Shown: in pieces, positions 35,373 through 40,132 of the stretch
Layout: each line of letters starts with the position of its first letter
How positions within the stretch are numbered: the first letter of the stretch is position 1
Virus record (IMG/VR): IMGVR_UViG_3300045988_018548
Length of the DNA stretch: 44,185 nt
Reading direction: 5' to 3' (one strand)
Origin: a virus
Taxonomy: Duplodnaviria; Heunggongvirae; Uroviricota; Caudoviricetes
Program-made: the position numbers and the translations under genes
The notes under the pieces: generated by a model
Database searches by the model: none
Told to the model about the DNA's origin: nothing
Seen by the model: only the letters and a program-made list of their open reading frames with translations

Positions 35373-35604
35373 GGGTAATCACCTCCGATTTCGTCTTGCC
35401 TTCGTTGTCCGCGGCTGCGGCCTTTGATTCGTCCTGCTGCTGCCGTTGTGTTTTCTTAGCTAACTCAGCCTGTGCTTTCTGCTGTTGCTGCGAAACGAGA
35501 TTCGCCCGGCCTTCGTTCCAGCCGGCGCGATACTGGTAGATGCCGTGTGCGTAAGCCAGGATGATGAAACATGCCCCCGCTACGACAGTCGCTTTAAGAT
35601 TCAT
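35218..35604 (-). CDS. i-spanin (Rz-like)
   Basis: 128 aa; N-terminal TM helix VVAGACFIILAYAHGIY then Gln/Lys/Ala-rich coiled coil. Confidence 0.65.
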   Translation of the reverse strand: MNLKATVVAGACFIILAYAHGIYQYRAGWNEGRANLVSQQQQKAQAELAKKTQRQQQDESKAAAADNEGKTKSEVITREVVKYIKTPGRSVCTFDHERVQLKSRAVANANSIPGYDDDAAAVQTGPAK

Positions 35605-35628
35605 GTTTCTCCTTTCTCGATAAGTAAA

Positions 35629-35648
35629 GCCCCGCCATAAAGCGGGGC
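35629..35648 (-). terminator. minus-strand terminator (gccccgc-cataaa-gcggggc then U-rich)
   Basis: 7-bp GC stem; minus transcript continues UUUACUUAUC; lies between head genes and spanin start. Confidence 0.5.
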
Positions 35649-35714
35649 GCTAGTCCTTATCATTTAAACATAGAAACGGCGTAATCTCAGTAAACCAGTT
35701 ACTTTTTACACAAG

Positions 35715-35857
35715 CAATAGAGTACGGCCCTTCCGAACGCGTCAGCGTAACTACACTCAGGACTTACGTCCCGCTCCGTTACCTGCCCGCGCCGCGGTCG
35801 CTTGTTCATACTTCACAAGCTCAGGTGGAGCTTATCATATTTTTAGTGAAAAGTCAA
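35715..35857 (+). repeat. ~143-bp intergenic element, copy B (paralog of 4397..4540)
   Basis: Aligned by eye to copy A; hairpins ggac-ttac-gtcc and aagct-caggtgg-agctt at matching positions. Confidence 0.8.
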
Positions 35858-35870
35858 CTATTCGAATAGT
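35857..35870. promoter_or_regulatory. perfect 14-bp palindrome ACTATTCGAATAGT (operator-like)
   Basis: Self-complementary; half-sites match the AATAG/CTATT dyad in promoters. Confidence 0.5.
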
Positions 35871-35923
35871 TTATTCTAACATTTACAATTACGAAGAATA
35901 ACTGGAATACGTAAACAAATAGT

Positions 35924-35957
35924 TTGCAGACACCAATATAATAGGGTACTATTCACT
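35924..35957 (+). promoter_or_regulatory. class II conserved promoter motif (TTGCAG-N17-TACTAT)
   Basis: TTGCAGACACCAATATAATAGGGTACTATTCACTCA, about 25 bp upstream of ATG 35982. Confidence 0.55.
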
Positions 35958-35981
35958 CACACCAACAAGAGGCGAGAAGAA

Positions 35982-36233
35982 ATGATTACGAAACCAGCAA
36001 AACATCGTGTACAGGACCTTGGTTCCTTTCTTAAAAAAGAGTATGAACAGGCTGAATTACGCGGCGATATTTCGGCGTATATTGAGCTTCAGCAGATGCA
36101 ACTGGACGCGCAAGAAGACGGGGATATGTCTCTATCCGCCGCGCTCGGTAGAAGTATGCGCCAGATTCGTGAAAAGTATAACCAAAACGTCTGGAATAAA
36201 GAGATTAACTTAACCCAAGAGACTGGGTATTGA
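35982..36233 (+). CDS. small hydrophilic protein, lone rightward gene inside late region
   Basis: 83 aa with own promoter and terminator; RBS AGAGG. Confidence 0.45.
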   Translation: MITKPAKHRVQDLGSFLKKEYEQAELRGDISAYIELQQMQLDAQEDGDMSLSAALGRSMRQIREKYNQNVWNKEINLTQETGY

Positions 36234-36237
36234 AACT

Positions 36238-36259
36238 AAGGCCCCGTAAGGGGCCTTTT
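36238..36259. terminator. bidirectional terminator aaggcccc-gtaa-ggggcctt + TT
   Basis: Perfect 8-bp GC stem between convergent genes. Confidence 0.65.
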
Positions 36260-36260
36260 A

Positions 36261-36722
36261 TCATTCTGGTTTAGTGACCTTCGCCGCCTTGCTCACCGCC
36301 TCTACCCCATCGGCATCAGTAACTTTAACGAAGTATTCACCGACCGCATTAACCGTCAGTGACGAGGCCTCTTCCGGGGCGTTTACAACTTCCTTACCGT
36401 CTTTGTACCAGGTCAGCGCGTACGGGGCTTTACCCGCCTTAACTTCAACAGTGATAATTGCGCTGCCGTCCACCAGTTCGGTGCCTTGCGGTTGTACGGA
36501 GAAATACACATCGCCAGCATCGGCCAGATACGGAATTTCATAAAGCATACCTGCCGCGGAGAGTGCGATACCGGTTTTATCCGCGTACGGCATCTCGTCT
36601 ACAGGTGTACCTAGTACACTTTCATCTTCAACGTAGGTTACGTTCTCGCCGGAGCCAGACACACGAGCGTACTGGACTACGCGACGCGACGGCACATCAG
36701 TTACTTTGAAAAAGCCCATCAT
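36261..36722 (-). CDS. Ig-like (Big_2-type) domain protein
   Basis: 153 aa; C-terminal ITVEVKAGKAPYALTWYKDGKEV ... GEYFVKVTDADG; start overlaps stop of head morphogenesis gene (TAATG). Confidence 0.5.
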   Translation of the reverse strand: MMGFFKVTDVPSRRVVQYARVSGSGENVTYVEDESVLGTPVDEMPYADKTGIALSAAGMLYEIPYLADAGDVYFSVQPQGTELVDGSAIITVEVKAGKAPYALTWYKDGKEVVNAPEEASSLTVNAVGEYFVKVTDADGVEAVSKAAKVTKPE

Positions 36723-38614
36723 TAATCCCCTTTCAGATAATCAGCAACACGTTTATCGAGTTCCGCCATCTGCTTAAGCGTGAGCGGATTCCCGAAACCA
36801 TCTACAGATATTACGCGAAACTCTTCCGGTGATATACCGCTGTTACGGAAAATCTTACCGCGAACAGGGCCGAGCGCCTGGTCCTGAAACCACGCAGGTT
36901 GTTGTTTGAGGAACTCATAATAGGTGGTGTCTGCACTTACCTGCATACCACCGTCCGCACCCTTAGCCGCGCGTTTTGCGCCTTTATCGAGGAAGTCGAA
37001 CTCAGAACTGATTACTGGCGCGGTTGTTGAGCGACAATTATGTGCTATAATTCCATTTGCGAGATACCAGTTCTGTTCATTTTCGAGGTTATAAACATGC
37101 CCGCAAAAATCAGCTTCACTAAAGACCAAATCGACAACATCATCAAGCTCTATACCGACGGCATCGGACCAGTTGAAATCGGAAAGATTATCGGCGTTTC
37201 GTGTAACCCAGTCATACGCGTTCTCAGAGAGAACGGCGTTAGTATTCGCGGTGTCAGCGACGCTATGTTTATCAGAATGGCTAAAGCTACTCCCGAGGAG
37301 CGCCTCGCTCTCTCCGCCGCGGCGCATGAAGCTGTCCGAGGGAGAAAGGCCGACCATGCTGAACTGCTTCGCAGAGCCAAAGCCAGAGAGGGAGTCATAA
37401 ATGCGGGAAGCCACTGGGAGTTCCTTGTCAATGATTTGCTTATTCAGTCCGGACTTGACTTTATCCCAGGAAAGGCGGTTGACAAGTACAATCTCGACTT
37501 CGCCGTCGGTTCCGTCGCCGTGGAAGTCTTCGGTGGTGGTTGGGCTTGTACGGACCGCCGCAGGATTGACCGCTACATTAGCCGCACTAAACAAATCGGA
37601 GAACTTGGCTACAACGTTGTGTTCCTTATGCTTGAGAGAGAGCGCAGAGTCCTTAGCGCACACGAGCTTGTCGCCTACATTGAGAAGGCCGGAAGCAACC
37701 CAACCATTGGTAGTCAATACCTGGTGGTTTGGGGTGATAGACAAGGTGCGACCGGACCTTGTAGAGACATAGACTATAGTGCCTTTGTACGCCCGTTTAA
37801 AAATGTTAGAAACCGGACTACCGGTAGATACTACAGTATCCCCAAGTAAGCAATTATGATGGGCCGGAGGCATCGGCCCTTTACCGATTTCCCACGTCAT
37901 CCTGTCTCTGGCTCTGCAAATCGTACTGGTACGGCTGTCCAGCGTTGATACCCACTCGTATTTCTCGATGATGTCGTCGTTCTGGCGGTACGTCTCGTTA
38001 CGGGCTTCGTTGGATACATGAGACAGCGCGGTGCGGATTACTGTAGCCGCGTTACGTTCTGAGATGTCGGCCAGCCCACCAGAGCCTACGACATTCTTAA
38101 CAATCTGCCGTGTGGTTTGACCTTGTACAAAGCCCATCTTAACTCCAGTTACGAGGCGGGCGACTTCGGTTTCACCCCAACCAGACATCAATTTAGTGAA
38201 GTCAACAGGCTTGTCGTTTAACGATAATGGCTGAAAATCGGCGGCGGCCCACACCTGTTCGGCGGTAGGCGTAACAAATTCCGCGTTAACGTTGGCGGTT
38301 AGTGTCTTTACGTTCCACTCAGCCTCGTATGCCGCCAGTTCCTTAAGGTCTTCTGTCAGCTTTGTTTGCCAATCGCCGGTAAGTCCGGTTAGCGCTTCTT
38401 CAAGGTCGAGTAACAGTTTATTCAGTCGCGCAGTGCTCCGCCCGTCATCACCGAATAACAGCACCTGCCGTTTTATTTCATCCCGCATCTCCTTAATGAA
38501 CGGTGCGAGGTCTTTCACCTCACCGGATGCGGTGCGTTGCAGCCATATCTGATGGCTGATGAGTGATGTAAGTAAGCTCATAGTTAAACCCTGTGGTGCT
38601 AAAGTTAATAGCAT
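36722..38614 (-). CDS. head morphogenesis protein (phage Mu F / SPP1 gp7-like) containing an intein
   Basis: 630-aa precursor; exteins join to ...STICRARDRMTWEIGKGPMPPAHHN-CRSTTAP..., matching the H-x-N-C-R signature of this family; located between portal and capsid genes. Confidence 0.75.
   Translation of the reverse strand: MLLTLAPQGLTMSLLTSLISHQIWLQRTASGEVKDLAPFIKEMRDEIKRQVLLFGDDGRSTARLNKLLLDLEEALTGLTGDWQTKLTEDLKELAAYEAEWNVKTLTANVNAEFVTPTAEQVWAAADFQPLSLNDKPVDFTKLMSGWGETEVARLVTGVKMGFVQGQTTRQIVKNVVGSGGLADISERNAATVIRTALSHVSNEARNETYRQNDDIIEKYEWVSTLDSRTSTICRARDRMTWEIGKGPMPPAHHNCLLGDTVVSTGSPVSNIFKRAYKGTIVYVSTRSGRTLSITPNHQVLTTNGWVASGLLNVGDKLVCAKDSALSLKHKEHNVVAKFSDLFSAANVAVNPAAVRTSPTTTEDFHGDGTDGEVEIVLVNRLSWDKVKSGLNKQIIDKELPVASRIYDSLSGFGSAKQFSMVGLSPSDSFMRRGGESEALLGSSFSHSDKHSVADTANTNAVLSENAYDWVTRNADNLSDFNWSDAVGIELDDVVDLVFSEADFCGHVYNLENEQNWYLANGIIAHNCRSTTAPVISSEFDFLDKGAKRAAKGADGGMQVSADTTYYEFLKQQPAWFQDQALGPVRGKIFRNSGISPEEFRVISVDGFGNPLTLKQMAELDKRVADYLKGD
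37024..37051 (+). promoter_or_regulatory. extended -10 promoter (TTGTTG-N16-TGcTATAAT) inside the intein, plus-strand
   Basis: Perfect TATAAT at 37046..37051 with TG at 37043..37044; 45 bp upstream of GAGGT RBS (37085..37089) and ATG 37097. Confidence 0.45.
37037..37852 (-). other. intein (272 aa, Hint splicing domain) within the head morphogenesis gene
   Basis: Begins CLLGDTVV (block A), TPNHQVLT (block B), ends VYNLENEQNWYLANGIIAHN followed by Cys (blocks F/G); no in-frame LAGLIDADG or HNH module seen. Confidence 0.8.
37097..37849 (+). CDS. HTH + DUF559/Vsr-like (PD-(D/E)xK-fold) endonuclease-like protein, encoded antisense within the intein
   Basis: Track ORF 37040..37849, start revised to ATG 37097 with GAGGT RBS; N-terminal HTH-like GPVEIGKIIGVSCNPVIRVLRENG; core YNLDFAVGSVAVEVFGGGW ... 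DRRRIDRYISRTKQIGELGYNVVFL resembles DUF559; balanced K/E/D/I composition unlike shadow ORFs. Caveat: same codon register as the minus-strand gene. Confidence 0.5.
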   Translation: MPAKISFTKDQIDNIIKLYTDGIGPVEIGKIIGVSCNPVIRVLRENGVSIRGVSDAMFIRMAKATPEERLALSAAAHEAVRGRKADHAELLRRAKAREGVINAGSHWEFLVNDLLIQSGLDFIPGKAVDKYNLDFAVGSVAVEVFGGGWACTDRRRIDRYISRTKQIGELGYNVVFLMLERERRVLSAHELVAYIEKAGSNPTIGSQYLVVWGDRQGATGPCRDIDYSAFVRPFKNVRNRTTGRYYSIPK

Positions 38615-38624
38615 ACTATAAGAA

Positions 38625-38640
38625 AGCCCCTTTCGGGGCT
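38625..38640 (-). terminator. stem-loop agcccc-tttc-ggggct, U-rich on minus strand (possible attenuator between portal and head genes)
   Basis: Hairpin with A-run on plus-strand 5' side. Confidence 0.4.
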
Positions 38641-38650
38641 ATATGTGAAC

Positions 38651-40132
38651 TTACGGCTGAGTGGTGTCCTGTTGTTGCGCCGACTGCGGAATCTCTCCCG
38701 CCACCTGAGCAACAGCACCCAACGGCAGAGGTGCGTCTTCGATAGCGTTCTGGATATCCTCGTCTGTCCAGTCAGTTACCCCGGCCTTGCGCAACGCAGC
38801 ATAGTAGGCCGTAGCCGGTAACAGGCCTGCGTTAATATCCGCCATCCACTGAGCGCGGTCCTGAGCTGTCATAGGTTGCAGGAAGAACTCCATATTCAGC
38901 TTGAACTCAATCTCTGTGTCTTCGCGCAACCCTAGCATCGCAGCTACCCAGCGCAACGCATCTGTATACGCCATACTTACGTTACGTGCGATTGTCGCCA
39001 TAACTGAGGTGTCAGCGCCGCGTTGCAGTCGGGCAGATTCAGCGGTGATTTGCTGCGTCGGGGTAATAAGCTGCGCACCAATCTGGATGGCCTGATTCTC
39101 TTTATCCAGCATGTTCTGCTTGGCGAGGTTGTTCTCGCCGGCCTGAACCAGAAACGCATTGCCGCCGTAACCGATGTTATGACCTGAACGCGACCCCATG
39201 CGCACGCCGTGTGGGTTAGCTTCTTTCCACTGTTCCATGCTCATGTTCTCGCCCGGGGCAATGAACAGAGTGGGCTGGCCTACAACGAAGCTGGACTCCT
39301 CATTGTCCGCGCTGTTGCGGAAATGTCCGATATTGAGCTCAGCCAACGGTAGCAAAGGCGCATCGTCGATGGTTGCGTCGTTGTTGCTCGCCCCAATGAA
39401 CGTGAAGGGGATTTTGCCGCGCAACTGTTCGCCAAGTTCCGGGAATATTTCGATTACTTCACCCTGAGCACCACCTCCGGCATCGAAGCGGTAAATGCGC
39501 TGGCGGTAGCGCCCGTCAATCAAATCGAGAACGCGATACTGCTCACCGAACTTTGTTTCGAACTCTGCACCCGGTTCTGAGTATTCCCATACTTCGCGCA
39601 ACACGACCATTGTCACGCGGTTAACTGAACCAACGCGAGTTAGTCGCCAGTTGATGATGTTCTCTGCGGTATAGAAAGCGATGACCGGGTTTAGTAATCC
39701 CGCGTTCTGTTCTGCCGCCGTTGCCGCGGCTGTCTCCGGGGCGTCCACCAGCAACCCGCCACGACCAACCGAGTCAATCTCCATTAGCGTATCCTGCGCG
39801 TGCTGCCACAGCCCGACACCAGAACCATCGGCGTTACGTAACAGGTACTCCAGTTCAGGCGGAATAATCTGTTCAGGGTCTTTGCGCATCACCGACCCCA
39901 CCATCCCCGCCAGGGTACGTTTAGTGAAGTTGTAGCAGATAGCACCATTCTCGTATTCTTCCTGGCGCTGCGCCGCGTAGGCCGGGTCGGGTTCGTTCTT
40001 CCCGACGTTGCGCAGATAGCGAATAAGGTCACCTTCCAGCGCGTGGCGTACCTTCTGCCATTTATTGAAGTGATGCAGCCATTCCCGGTGTTTTGTCTTA
40101 ACACCCTGATTCTGACCGTTCATTGTTAACAT
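38651..40132 (-). CDS. portal protein
   Basis: 493 aa, immediately downstream of large terminase, acidic C-terminus; assigned mainly by position and size. Confidence 0.65.
   Translation of the reverse strand: MLTMNGQNQGVKTKHREWLHHFNKWQKVRHALEGDLIRYLRNVGKNEPDPAYAAQRQEEYENGAICYNFTKRTLAGMVGSVMRKDPEQIIPPELEYLLRNADGSGVGLWQHAQDTLMEIDSVGRGGLLVDAPETAAATAAEQNAGLLNPVIAFYTAENIINWRLTRVGSVNRVTMVVLREVWEYSEPGAEFETKFGEQYRVLDLIDGRYRQRIYRFDAGGGAQGEVIEIFPELGEQLRGKIPFTFIGASNNDATIDDAPLLPLAELNIGHFRNSADNEESSFVVGQPTLFIAPGENMSMEQWKEANPHGVRMGSRSGHNIGYGGNAFLVQAGENNLAKQNMLDKENQAIQIGAQLITPTQQITAESARLQRGADTSVMATIARNVSMAYTDALRWVAAMLGLREDTEIEFKLNMEFFLQPMTAQDRAQWMADINAGLLPATAYYAALRKAGVTDWTDEDIQNAIEDAPLPLGAVAQVAGEIPQSAQQQDTTQP

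Follow-up and report, generated by a model that had tools for sequence, protein, structure and literature searches.

A candidate promoter, ribosome-binding site and start codon for an antisense nuclease-family gene within the splicing blocks of a phage MuF intein

The recognition of inteins that carry a nuclease gene on their opposite strand is very recent, and the route by which such genes are expressed has so far not been addressed. The closest described elements are the anti-sense 'VSR -1 ORF', or VSR-like homing endonuclease, inteins in the MuF-like minor capsid proteins of actinophages (Gosselin, Arsenault & Gogarten, bioRxiv 10.1101/2025.01.02.630785, version of October 2025). The main text of that survey is silent on promoter, ribosome-binding site and start codon, and does not name Escherichia. 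The family of Vsr-like 'EDxHD' nucleases was defined by Dassa et al. 2009 (PMC2677866) from split-intein 'fractured genes', from introns and from stand-alone inserts, and I-Bth0305I was characterised by Taylor et al. 2011 (PMC3239194). Inteins with an anti-sense LAGLIDADG endonuclease have been on record since 1998 (Gorbalenya 1998; Synechocystis DnaX, Chloroflexus SpoVR-like; as cited in bioRxiv 10.1101/2025.01.02.630785). Here we describe a related locus in a 44,185-nucleotide stretch of viral DNA (IMG/VR record IMGVR_UViG_3300045988_018548), the whole of which is called the window below. An intein in its MuF head gene carries, on the other strand, a gene of the I-Bth0305I family.

The window element is a new member, in enterobacterial phages, of this known kind of antisense-nuclease intein. 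As in the elements of Gosselin et al., the nuclease open reading frame (ORF) lies on the opposite strand inside a MuF-like intein whose own frame is uninterrupted, and the Gordonia and Mycobacterium phages of their table were recovered here as homologues. Their survey is confined to actinophages, whereas the clade of the window is gammaproteobacterial, has a perfect extended -10 element and lacks the general-base histidine. With the I-Bth0305I family the plus-strand protein shares an N-terminal helix-turn-helix (HTH)/NUMOD-type region and a C-terminal Vsr-like core, the Mg-binding aspartate, an extra acidic residue at the position of Vsr Phe62, a retained tryptophan, and a phage-borne, intein- or intron-associated setting. 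However, known members of that family reside between split-intein halves, in group I introns or as stand-alone genes, on the strand of the host gene. Their control involves hairpins that sequester the ribosome-binding site and boxes resembling T4 late promoters, none of which is seen here, and the histidine of EDxHD is an alanine in the window. The anti-sense LAGLIDADG inteins, compared through their description only, likewise place a homing endonuclease opposite its host intein, but the nuclease family and the host proteins are different. The genome papers noting the intein in phages Snoke, UPWr and vKMB36 leave the antisense gene unmentioned. New in this analysis are the expression signals that lie within splicing blocks F and G, a selection map that switches strands, statistics on the avoidance of stop codons, an occurrence that spans phyla, and the absence of the histidine.

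The reading that we favour, at a probability of roughly 0.7, is that of a composite selfish element in which a dedicated extended -10 promoter, a Shine-Dalgarno (SD) sequence and a start codon for the antisense nuclease gene are built into intein codons. Among these parts, we regard the dedicated promoter as probable and are more confident still of the start codon and the SD sequence. The dual coding of the intein and the antisense gene is demonstrated. The antisense gene needs expression signals of its own because its orientation opposes that of the surrounding late operon.

The window is the genome of a Guernseyvirinae siphophage of the Kagunavirus/Jerseyvirus type. Its MuF, or SPP1 gp7-like, head morphogenesis (minor capsid) gene occupies 36722..38581 on the minus strand (619 codons plus stop); the frame is open to 38614, and relatives begin at the methionine at 38581, with an annotated length of 1860 nucleotides (nt). 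The product matches Pfam Phage_Mu_F and Intein_splicing, both above cut-off, and PHROG 241 head morphogenesis (E=1e-147), and nine MuF alleles align without any gap. Inserted into the MuF motif P-P-A-H-x-N/C-R-S (a slash marks the insertion point throughout) is a class-1 intein of 272 residues (37037..37852, minus strand), which runs from Cys1 at 37850-37852 to Asn272 at 37037-37039 and is followed by the +1 cysteine codon of the C-extein, the splice-junction nucleophile (37034..37036, minus strand). Its class is evident from the block A nucleophile Cys1, kept in all loci examined, from the T-x-x-H of block B (T-P-N-H at 37724-37735, kept in close and distant loci) and from block G, which ends in I-I-A-H-N/C with the cysteine at +1. 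The Pfam Intein_splicing profile scores 40.2 bits against a cut-off of 35.8. The C-terminal splicing region TIGR01443 is also above its cut-off, the N-terminal domain slightly under (24.3 vs 24.5 bits), and the annotation of Snoke supports the intein. The intein-free allele of phage GertrudWoker reads PPAHPN/CRSTT, an exact empty site with no gap or duplication. At the DNA level, intein-free MuF genes (e.g. GertrudWoker/K1ind2) carry CCAGCCCATCCTAAT before the insertion point and TGCCGAAGTACC after it. At extein residue -2 (37856-37858, minus strand) the window has a histidine (A-H-H-N/C), and eight intein-containing relatives and the intein-free allele have a proline (A-H-P-N/C).

The intein presumably splices itself from the head protein, as a functional head protein is needed and the splicing blocks show ratios of nonsynonymous to synonymous substitution rates (dN/dS) of 0.03-0.40. 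On the minus strand, block G reads N-G-I-I-A-H-N (37037-37057) and block F reads G-H-V-Y-N-L-E; a fixed 22 residues separate them in 94 of 98 loci. No endonuclease domain was found in the frame of the intein itself, neither as a LAGLIDADG or HNH match nor in its minus-frame dN/dS. Between the splicing halves, intein residues ~76-225 (37178-37627, minus strand) form a serine-rich 'mirror translation' of the nuclease gene with a dN/dS of 1.36. Evidently the splicing halves can do with ~150 unconstrained residues as a linker between them.

The antisense gene (37097..37849, plus strand; 250 codons) encodes a homologue of the I-Bth0305I homing endonucleases with an HTH and a Vsr-like part. Its codons stand in exact mirror register with those of the intein, position 2 opposite position 2, and the gene ends in a TAA that lies opposite intein codon 2 (Leu, TTA). 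The original prediction had placed the plus-strand motifs in codons of the C-terminal splicing blocks; this holds, but the overlap was understated, since the plus-strand ORF spans almost the whole intein including blocks A and B. Selection switches strands along the locus, as seen in Nei-Gojobori estimates of dN/dS over the nine ungapped alleles. In the exteins, the values are 0.05-0.09 in the minus frame and above 1 in the plus frame. The intein centre (152 codons) reverses this, with 1.36 in the minus and 0.11 in the plus frame, and its variable sites are distributed 96/19/36 over minus codon positions 1/2/3. In blocks F and G (20 codons) the minus frame is again the constrained one (0.03 vs 2.7). 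The N-terminal splicing region gives 0.40 and 0.63 in the minus and plus frames, with a low dS in both. A sliding window locates the plus-strand dominance at nuclease residues ~28-152.

The same picture is obtained at larger distances. When identical codon columns are compared in 11 distant pairs, every pair shows higher conservation of the plus frame in the centre and of the minus frame over the splicing blocks, including where the ORF overlaps blocks A and B. In the dual-constrained stretch (37628..37849, both strands), which places nuclease residues ~178-250 over blocks A and B, the intein frame is the better conserved one, so that the last 50-70 residues of the plus-strand protein are shaped mainly by the intein. 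Furthermore, 98 of 100 related loci have an intein frame without interruption over the full length of the nuclease match, and to keep it so the nuclease gene must avoid TTA, CTA and TCA. These three codons are absent from 51 non-redundant nuclease ORFs, where ~305 are expected from the codon usage of each locus (7.7 in the window-type allele, P ~1e-4). Purifying selection on the antisense gene is shown by these data, and the dual coding constraint that had been proposed is real and measurable in the strand-switching dN/dS, in the distant pairs and in the avoidance of stop codons. The plus-strand ORF is annotated in none of the 12 intein-carrying phage records inspected, which include close and distant relatives; annotation pipelines therefore probably miss such genes routinely.

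Enterobacterial sigma-70 promoters of the extended -10 (TGn) type carry TG at -15/-14 ahead of TATAAT and do not need a -35 element. The three motifs of the original prediction are all present on the plus strand: TGcTATAAT (TGCTATAAT, 37043..37051), which has the TG at -15/-14 and a perfect TATAAT and gives a predicted start site near 37058; the SD sequence GAGGT (37085..37089), with a 7-nt spacer; and the ATG (37097..37099). They do precede a genuine plus-strand gene of a nuclease family, as had been suggested. Each is a mirror image of splicing-block codons. TGcTATAAT lies opposite Ala-Ile-Ile of block G (TATAAT opposite ATT ATA for Ile-Ile, TGC opposite GCA for Ala), GAGGT opposite Asn-Leu of block F (AAC CTC), and ATG opposite the conserved block F histidine (CAT). 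In contrast to ordinary extended -10 promoters, every base of the element is here also a codon base of essential intein splicing residues. Among the nine close alleles, TGcTATAAT and GAGGT are each intact in eight and the ATG in all nine. In the allele L015 the SD sequence is weakened by a change to TAGGT, leaving AGGT. This change also puts an in-frame TAG ahead of 37097, so that a start at the alternative ATG at 37040 is excluded.

That alternative start (269 residues) was rejected on two grounds: in-frame plus-strand stops precede 37097 in the loci L009, L017, L018 and L023 as well as in L015, and the stretch up to 37097 evolves under the minus frame. A generic sigma-70 scan, which demands a -35 element, skips the TGcTATAAT site and returns only weak 9-of-12 sites elsewhere. 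The leader contains no hairpin sequestering the ribosome-binding site and folds worse than shuffled sequences (z=+1.0), and an Rfam search of 35500-39500 at E up to 1 gave no match. The nearest upstream plus-strand gene (ORF 35982-36233) ends at a terminator (36238-36257), which argues against expression of the antisense gene by read-through. On its 3′ side, no plus-strand terminator was found up to 39367.

The main support for the embedded signals comes from silent sites in distant relatives. The comparative set comprises 51 non-redundant distant loci, accompanied by an alignment of 15 loci and a stricter set of 23, and the expectation is derived from the extein codon usage of each locus. At the codon of the block F histidine the nuclease gene starts with ATG in 42/51 loci and with GTG in 6/51 (other in 3/51). 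Of the 51, 42 have an SD sequence of 4 nt or more, and 32 have TAnnnT at the fixed position. The silent sites that would form the -10 element are strongly biased: -15T is observed 33 times (7.8 expected), -12T 34 times (8.9 expected) and -9A 37 times (13.7 expected). The same applies to leucine written as CTC, which supplies the GAG of the SD sequence (33/45, 10.6 expected), and to histidine written as CAT, which supplies the ATG (42/48, 19.4 expected). Enrichment ranges from 2.2 to 4.2 fold over the target sites and from 2.7 to 4.2 fold at the -10 sites (P from 1e-14 to 4e-18 against extein codon usage, values made optimistic by the relatedness of the loci, which overstates their independence). 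It holds in the strict 23-locus set and in both GC-content classes and is largest in high-GC phages, where it reaches 6-7 fold at -15T and -12T and ~5 fold at -9A. In these high-GC loci, the histidine is CAT in 18/23, and A-ending Ile/Val/Leu codons are found in 12/23 against 1.6 expected.

The extended -10 element recurs in Vibrio, Idiomarina and metagenomic lineages, and the comparison shows that the silent sites which would form the signals are conserved across phyla. Conservation of the -10 and the ribosome-binding site in homologous inteins was the point on which the original prediction had staked itself, and the 2-4 fold enrichment over 51 loci speaks in its favour. Two loci with an altered layout were also noted. 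Idiomarinaceae phage 1N2-2 is without the usual block F histidine and has the nuclease ATG three codons later, again opposite a histidine, and it keeps TGCTATAAT on block G. In Aaphi23, TGTTATAAT is shifted ~17 nt toward the start codon.

Identification of the plus-strand protein required family-level evidence. Single-sequence searches against Pfam, PHROGs, NCBIfam and the PDB yielded marginal HTH matches only. Fourteen homologues came from a large protein search, with E down to 1e-76; 13 long matches among them have BLASTP identities to the query of 27-50% and one short fragment 91%; one homologue is named very-short-patch-repair endonuclease by one source, and homologues of the protein reach down to about 25% identity. 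A profile of 14 sequences of the family matches I-Bth0305I (3r3p) with E=9.7e-6 over 79 positions, and an AlphaFold model built from 14 sequences is confident (mean predicted local distance difference test score 83). A Vsr/I-Bth0305I nuclease fold with an N-terminal HTH is thus predicted with confidence. The HTH DNA-binding module covers residues ~8-45 (37118..37231, plus strand) and the Vsr-like nuclease core residues ~106-200 (37412..37696, plus strand). Invariant among 22 sequences are E108 (37418-20), Y131-N132-x-D134 (D134 at 37496-98) and E143 (37523-25); D134 aligns with the Mg-binding D196 of I-Bth0305I, and E143 matches the acidic residue which this family has at the position of Vsr Phe62. 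Family membership is clear, and nuclease activity in the clade of the window is a prediction.

One competing account holds that the -10 and SD strings are by-products of intein conservation and an AT-rich block, and that the plus-strand gene is real but transcribed from elsewhere or by pervasive antisense transcription. In addition to the limited independence of the loci, several observations weigh against a dedicated promoter, most of which also fit this account. Counting both strands, the 44,185-base window contains a single TGnTATAAT (TGNTATAAT), against 1.07 expected from shuffles; this is chance level, so the single site is not significant alone and the evidence is comparative. Half of the -10 bases (-11A, -8A and -7T) are forced by the Ile/Val codons regardless of selection. 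The remaining codons of blocks F and G, used as controls, are 1.25-1.5 fold richer in A/T endings than the exteins, and in high-GC phages A-ending codons of these blocks are 2-fold enriched beyond the specific promoter and SD positions, so that part of the silent-site bias is regional. The exact TGnTATAAT is present in only 12/51 loci (11 of 28 with a GC content below 0.6, 1 of 23 above). Among the close alleles LSPA1 has TATAAC, and no usable transcriptome for this phage group was found in the literature. The candidate -35 of the window is poor (TTGTTG, 3/6, 16-nt spacing), and the -35 is not conserved across loci (best match 2.4/6 vs 2.7 at control offsets), which is also consistent with an extended -10 element independent of it. 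With no -35 and with the LSPA1 sequence, the qualification of the promoter as 'strong' was an assumption. However, the by-product account has to explain why the target silent sites lie well over the local baseline (P 4e-10 to 1.5e-8 for the three -10 positions, 8e-4 to 2e-2 in the strict set), why enrichment peaks in high-GC phages, where A/T-ending codons are rarest, and why Aaphi23 has the motif again in a displaced position. The search for another plus-strand promoter gave none, the terminator at 36238-36257 blocks upstream read-through, and one can hardly account for the SD and ATG biases unless translation starts there. We consider this account rather improbable. Translational pausing, by which rare A-ending Ile/Val/Leu codons would slow ribosomes and aid intein folding, is far less plausible. 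ATA, GTA and CTA are indeed rare and sit ~4 codons ahead of the splice junction, but pausing leaves unexplained why the neighbouring Ile codon tends to end in T (-9A), and likewise the biases toward A-ending Ala/Thr (the TG), CTC for Leu and CAT for His. It also offers no reason for the combined string to be TGnTATAAT.

The remaining rivals concern the protein. That the 250-codon ORF is a meaningless mirror-frame ORF might be supposed because the mirror antisense frame (position 2 on 2) is the most prone to long spurious ORFs and because the ORF is unannotated in the database records of close relatives. This notion is already refuted by the dN/dS of 0.11 in the plus against 1.36 in the minus frame, the higher plus than minus identity in 11/11 distant pairs, the confident nuclease fold with sequence homology to I-Bth0305I, and a free-standing homologue in Acinetobacter phage P1068. 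More weight, although still a minor share, belongs to the view that the protein no longer cleaves DNA in this clade and is a nickase, a regulator that binds DNA, or a remnant, either domesticated or decaying. Ala150 (37544-46) aligns with H213 of I-Bth0305I and H69 of Vsr, the general base, and the H213A exchange inactivated I-Bth0305I (Taylor et al., PMC3239194); both facts count against DNA cleavage. All relatives of at least 39% identity have Ala or Ser at this position, and no conserved aspartate equivalent to D222 was found; D222 aligns to Tyr160, with D158 and D153 nearby partly conserved, in a region of uncertain alignment. Among the more distant loci shown, most retain the histidine (W-H...G.H). 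Against loss of cleavage stand the strong purifying selection on the core (dN/dS 0.11), the invariant Mg-binding Asp134, Glu108 and Glu143, and the divergence of the intein, which is so much lower than that of its host gene as to imply recent spread. In addition, a conserved (S/T)-(D/E), three residues past the Trp and following the Ala or Ser in the relatives of at least 39% identity, could supply a substitute base. The designation 'nuclease' of the original prediction is therefore sound for family and fold, but with Ala150 in place of the general-base histidine the protein may be no conventional nuclease.

According to the composite-element reading, the minus strand encodes a class-1 intein, made as part of the head protein and obliged to remove itself by splicing, and the plus strand of the same DNA encodes a separate 250-residue HTH and Vsr-like protein of the I-Bth0305I family. 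Writing Ile-Ile-Ala of block G as ATT-ATA-GCA creates TGcTATAAT, which would be a -35-independent promoter for the host sigma-70 polymerase. Likewise, Asn-Leu of block F as AAC-CTC provides GAGGT as the SD sequence, and the block F histidine as CAT the ATG. Transcription starting near 37058 would then give an unstructured leader of ~39 nt. We infer promoter activity, this start site and the timing of nuclease expression. Transcripts from here might collide with the late mRNA, and nuclease expression might be separated in time from virion assembly, as the original prediction proposed. The protein would presumably recognise intein-free MuF alleles of co-infecting phages and cut or nick them at ...CAT CCT AAT/TGC CGA..., and repair of the cut allele would copy the intein in. 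A wider version of the composite-element reading, to which we give even odds, is that across bacterial phyla blocks F and G also serve as the promoter, ribosome-binding site and start of the antisense gene, that the element is an obligately two-stranded mobile unit, and that the enterobacterial/marine clade, with another residue in place of the general-base histidine, is a new catalytic variant. The signals would be protected from decay because the same bases are constrained as codons of conserved splicing blocks.

As to how opposite-strand nuclease genes are expressed, the answer indicated here is that silent positions in three splicing-block motifs are chosen such that they form a promoter, a ribosome-binding site and a start on the other strand. 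Such embedded signals would explain how an antisense gene can function although the late operon around it runs the opposite way, and they would tie nuclease and intein into one unit. The phenomenon is also placed in easily manipulated phages of E. coli and Salmonella (Snoke, Jersey-like). As the central 150 intein codons are free to vary, a nuclease knock-out or a recoded promoter would be possible with the intein protein untouched.

The element is widespread. A tblastn search found the plus-strand protein in 106 records of phages that infect, among others, Salmonella, Escherichia, Klebsiella, Vibrio, Acinetobacter, Haemophilus/Aggregatibacter, Idiomarina, Edwardsiella, Helicobacter, Gordonia and Mycobacterium. 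Among the tblastn matches listed, the named features underneath are head, MuF or minor-capsid genes, with one exception ('NAD+--asparagine ADP-ribosyltransferase'). A further 139 relatives come from IMG/VR, including one contig (L025) that is 100% identical across the nuclease gene. The intein is patchy within Guernseyvirinae, being carried by ~67 of 284 matching records, about a quarter. Nucleotide identity to the window is 78-96% for the intein and 67-92% for the N-extein; in LP31, the intein reaches 95.8%, against 70.1% for the N-extein and 80.8% for the C-extein. The intein is shown to be much younger than its host gene, and its low divergence together with the patchy presence bears the signature of a recent horizontal spread.

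Two loci lack an intein frame open across the nuclease match. In Acinetobacter phage P1068 (OQ689089, 1264-2969), MuF is intact and intein-free (...PMCKCRA...), and the nuclease homologue is free-standing and convergent, with a 7-nt overlap with the MuF 3′ end. This layout may represent a state before intein capture or a case of collaborative homing. In the second locus (IMGVR_UViG_3300028214_000030, ~1231-1285) a single frameshift breaks both the nuclease and the intein ORFs, which could be due either to decay of this copy or to an assembly error.

Lastly, two features elsewhere in the window were noted. Between the portal and MuF genes lies a perfect GC-rich hairpin (38625-38640, AGCCCC GAAA GGGGCT) with a T-run on the minus side only, which looks like a terminator or a processing site within the late operon. 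A plus-strand cargo slot (35650-36260) is located between the spanin genes and a Hoc-like decoration gene; it holds an 83-residue ORF in the window, and in relatives a sliding-clamp-like gene (Snoke), endonuclease VII (LSPA1) or RusA (SaI_NFG_5577).

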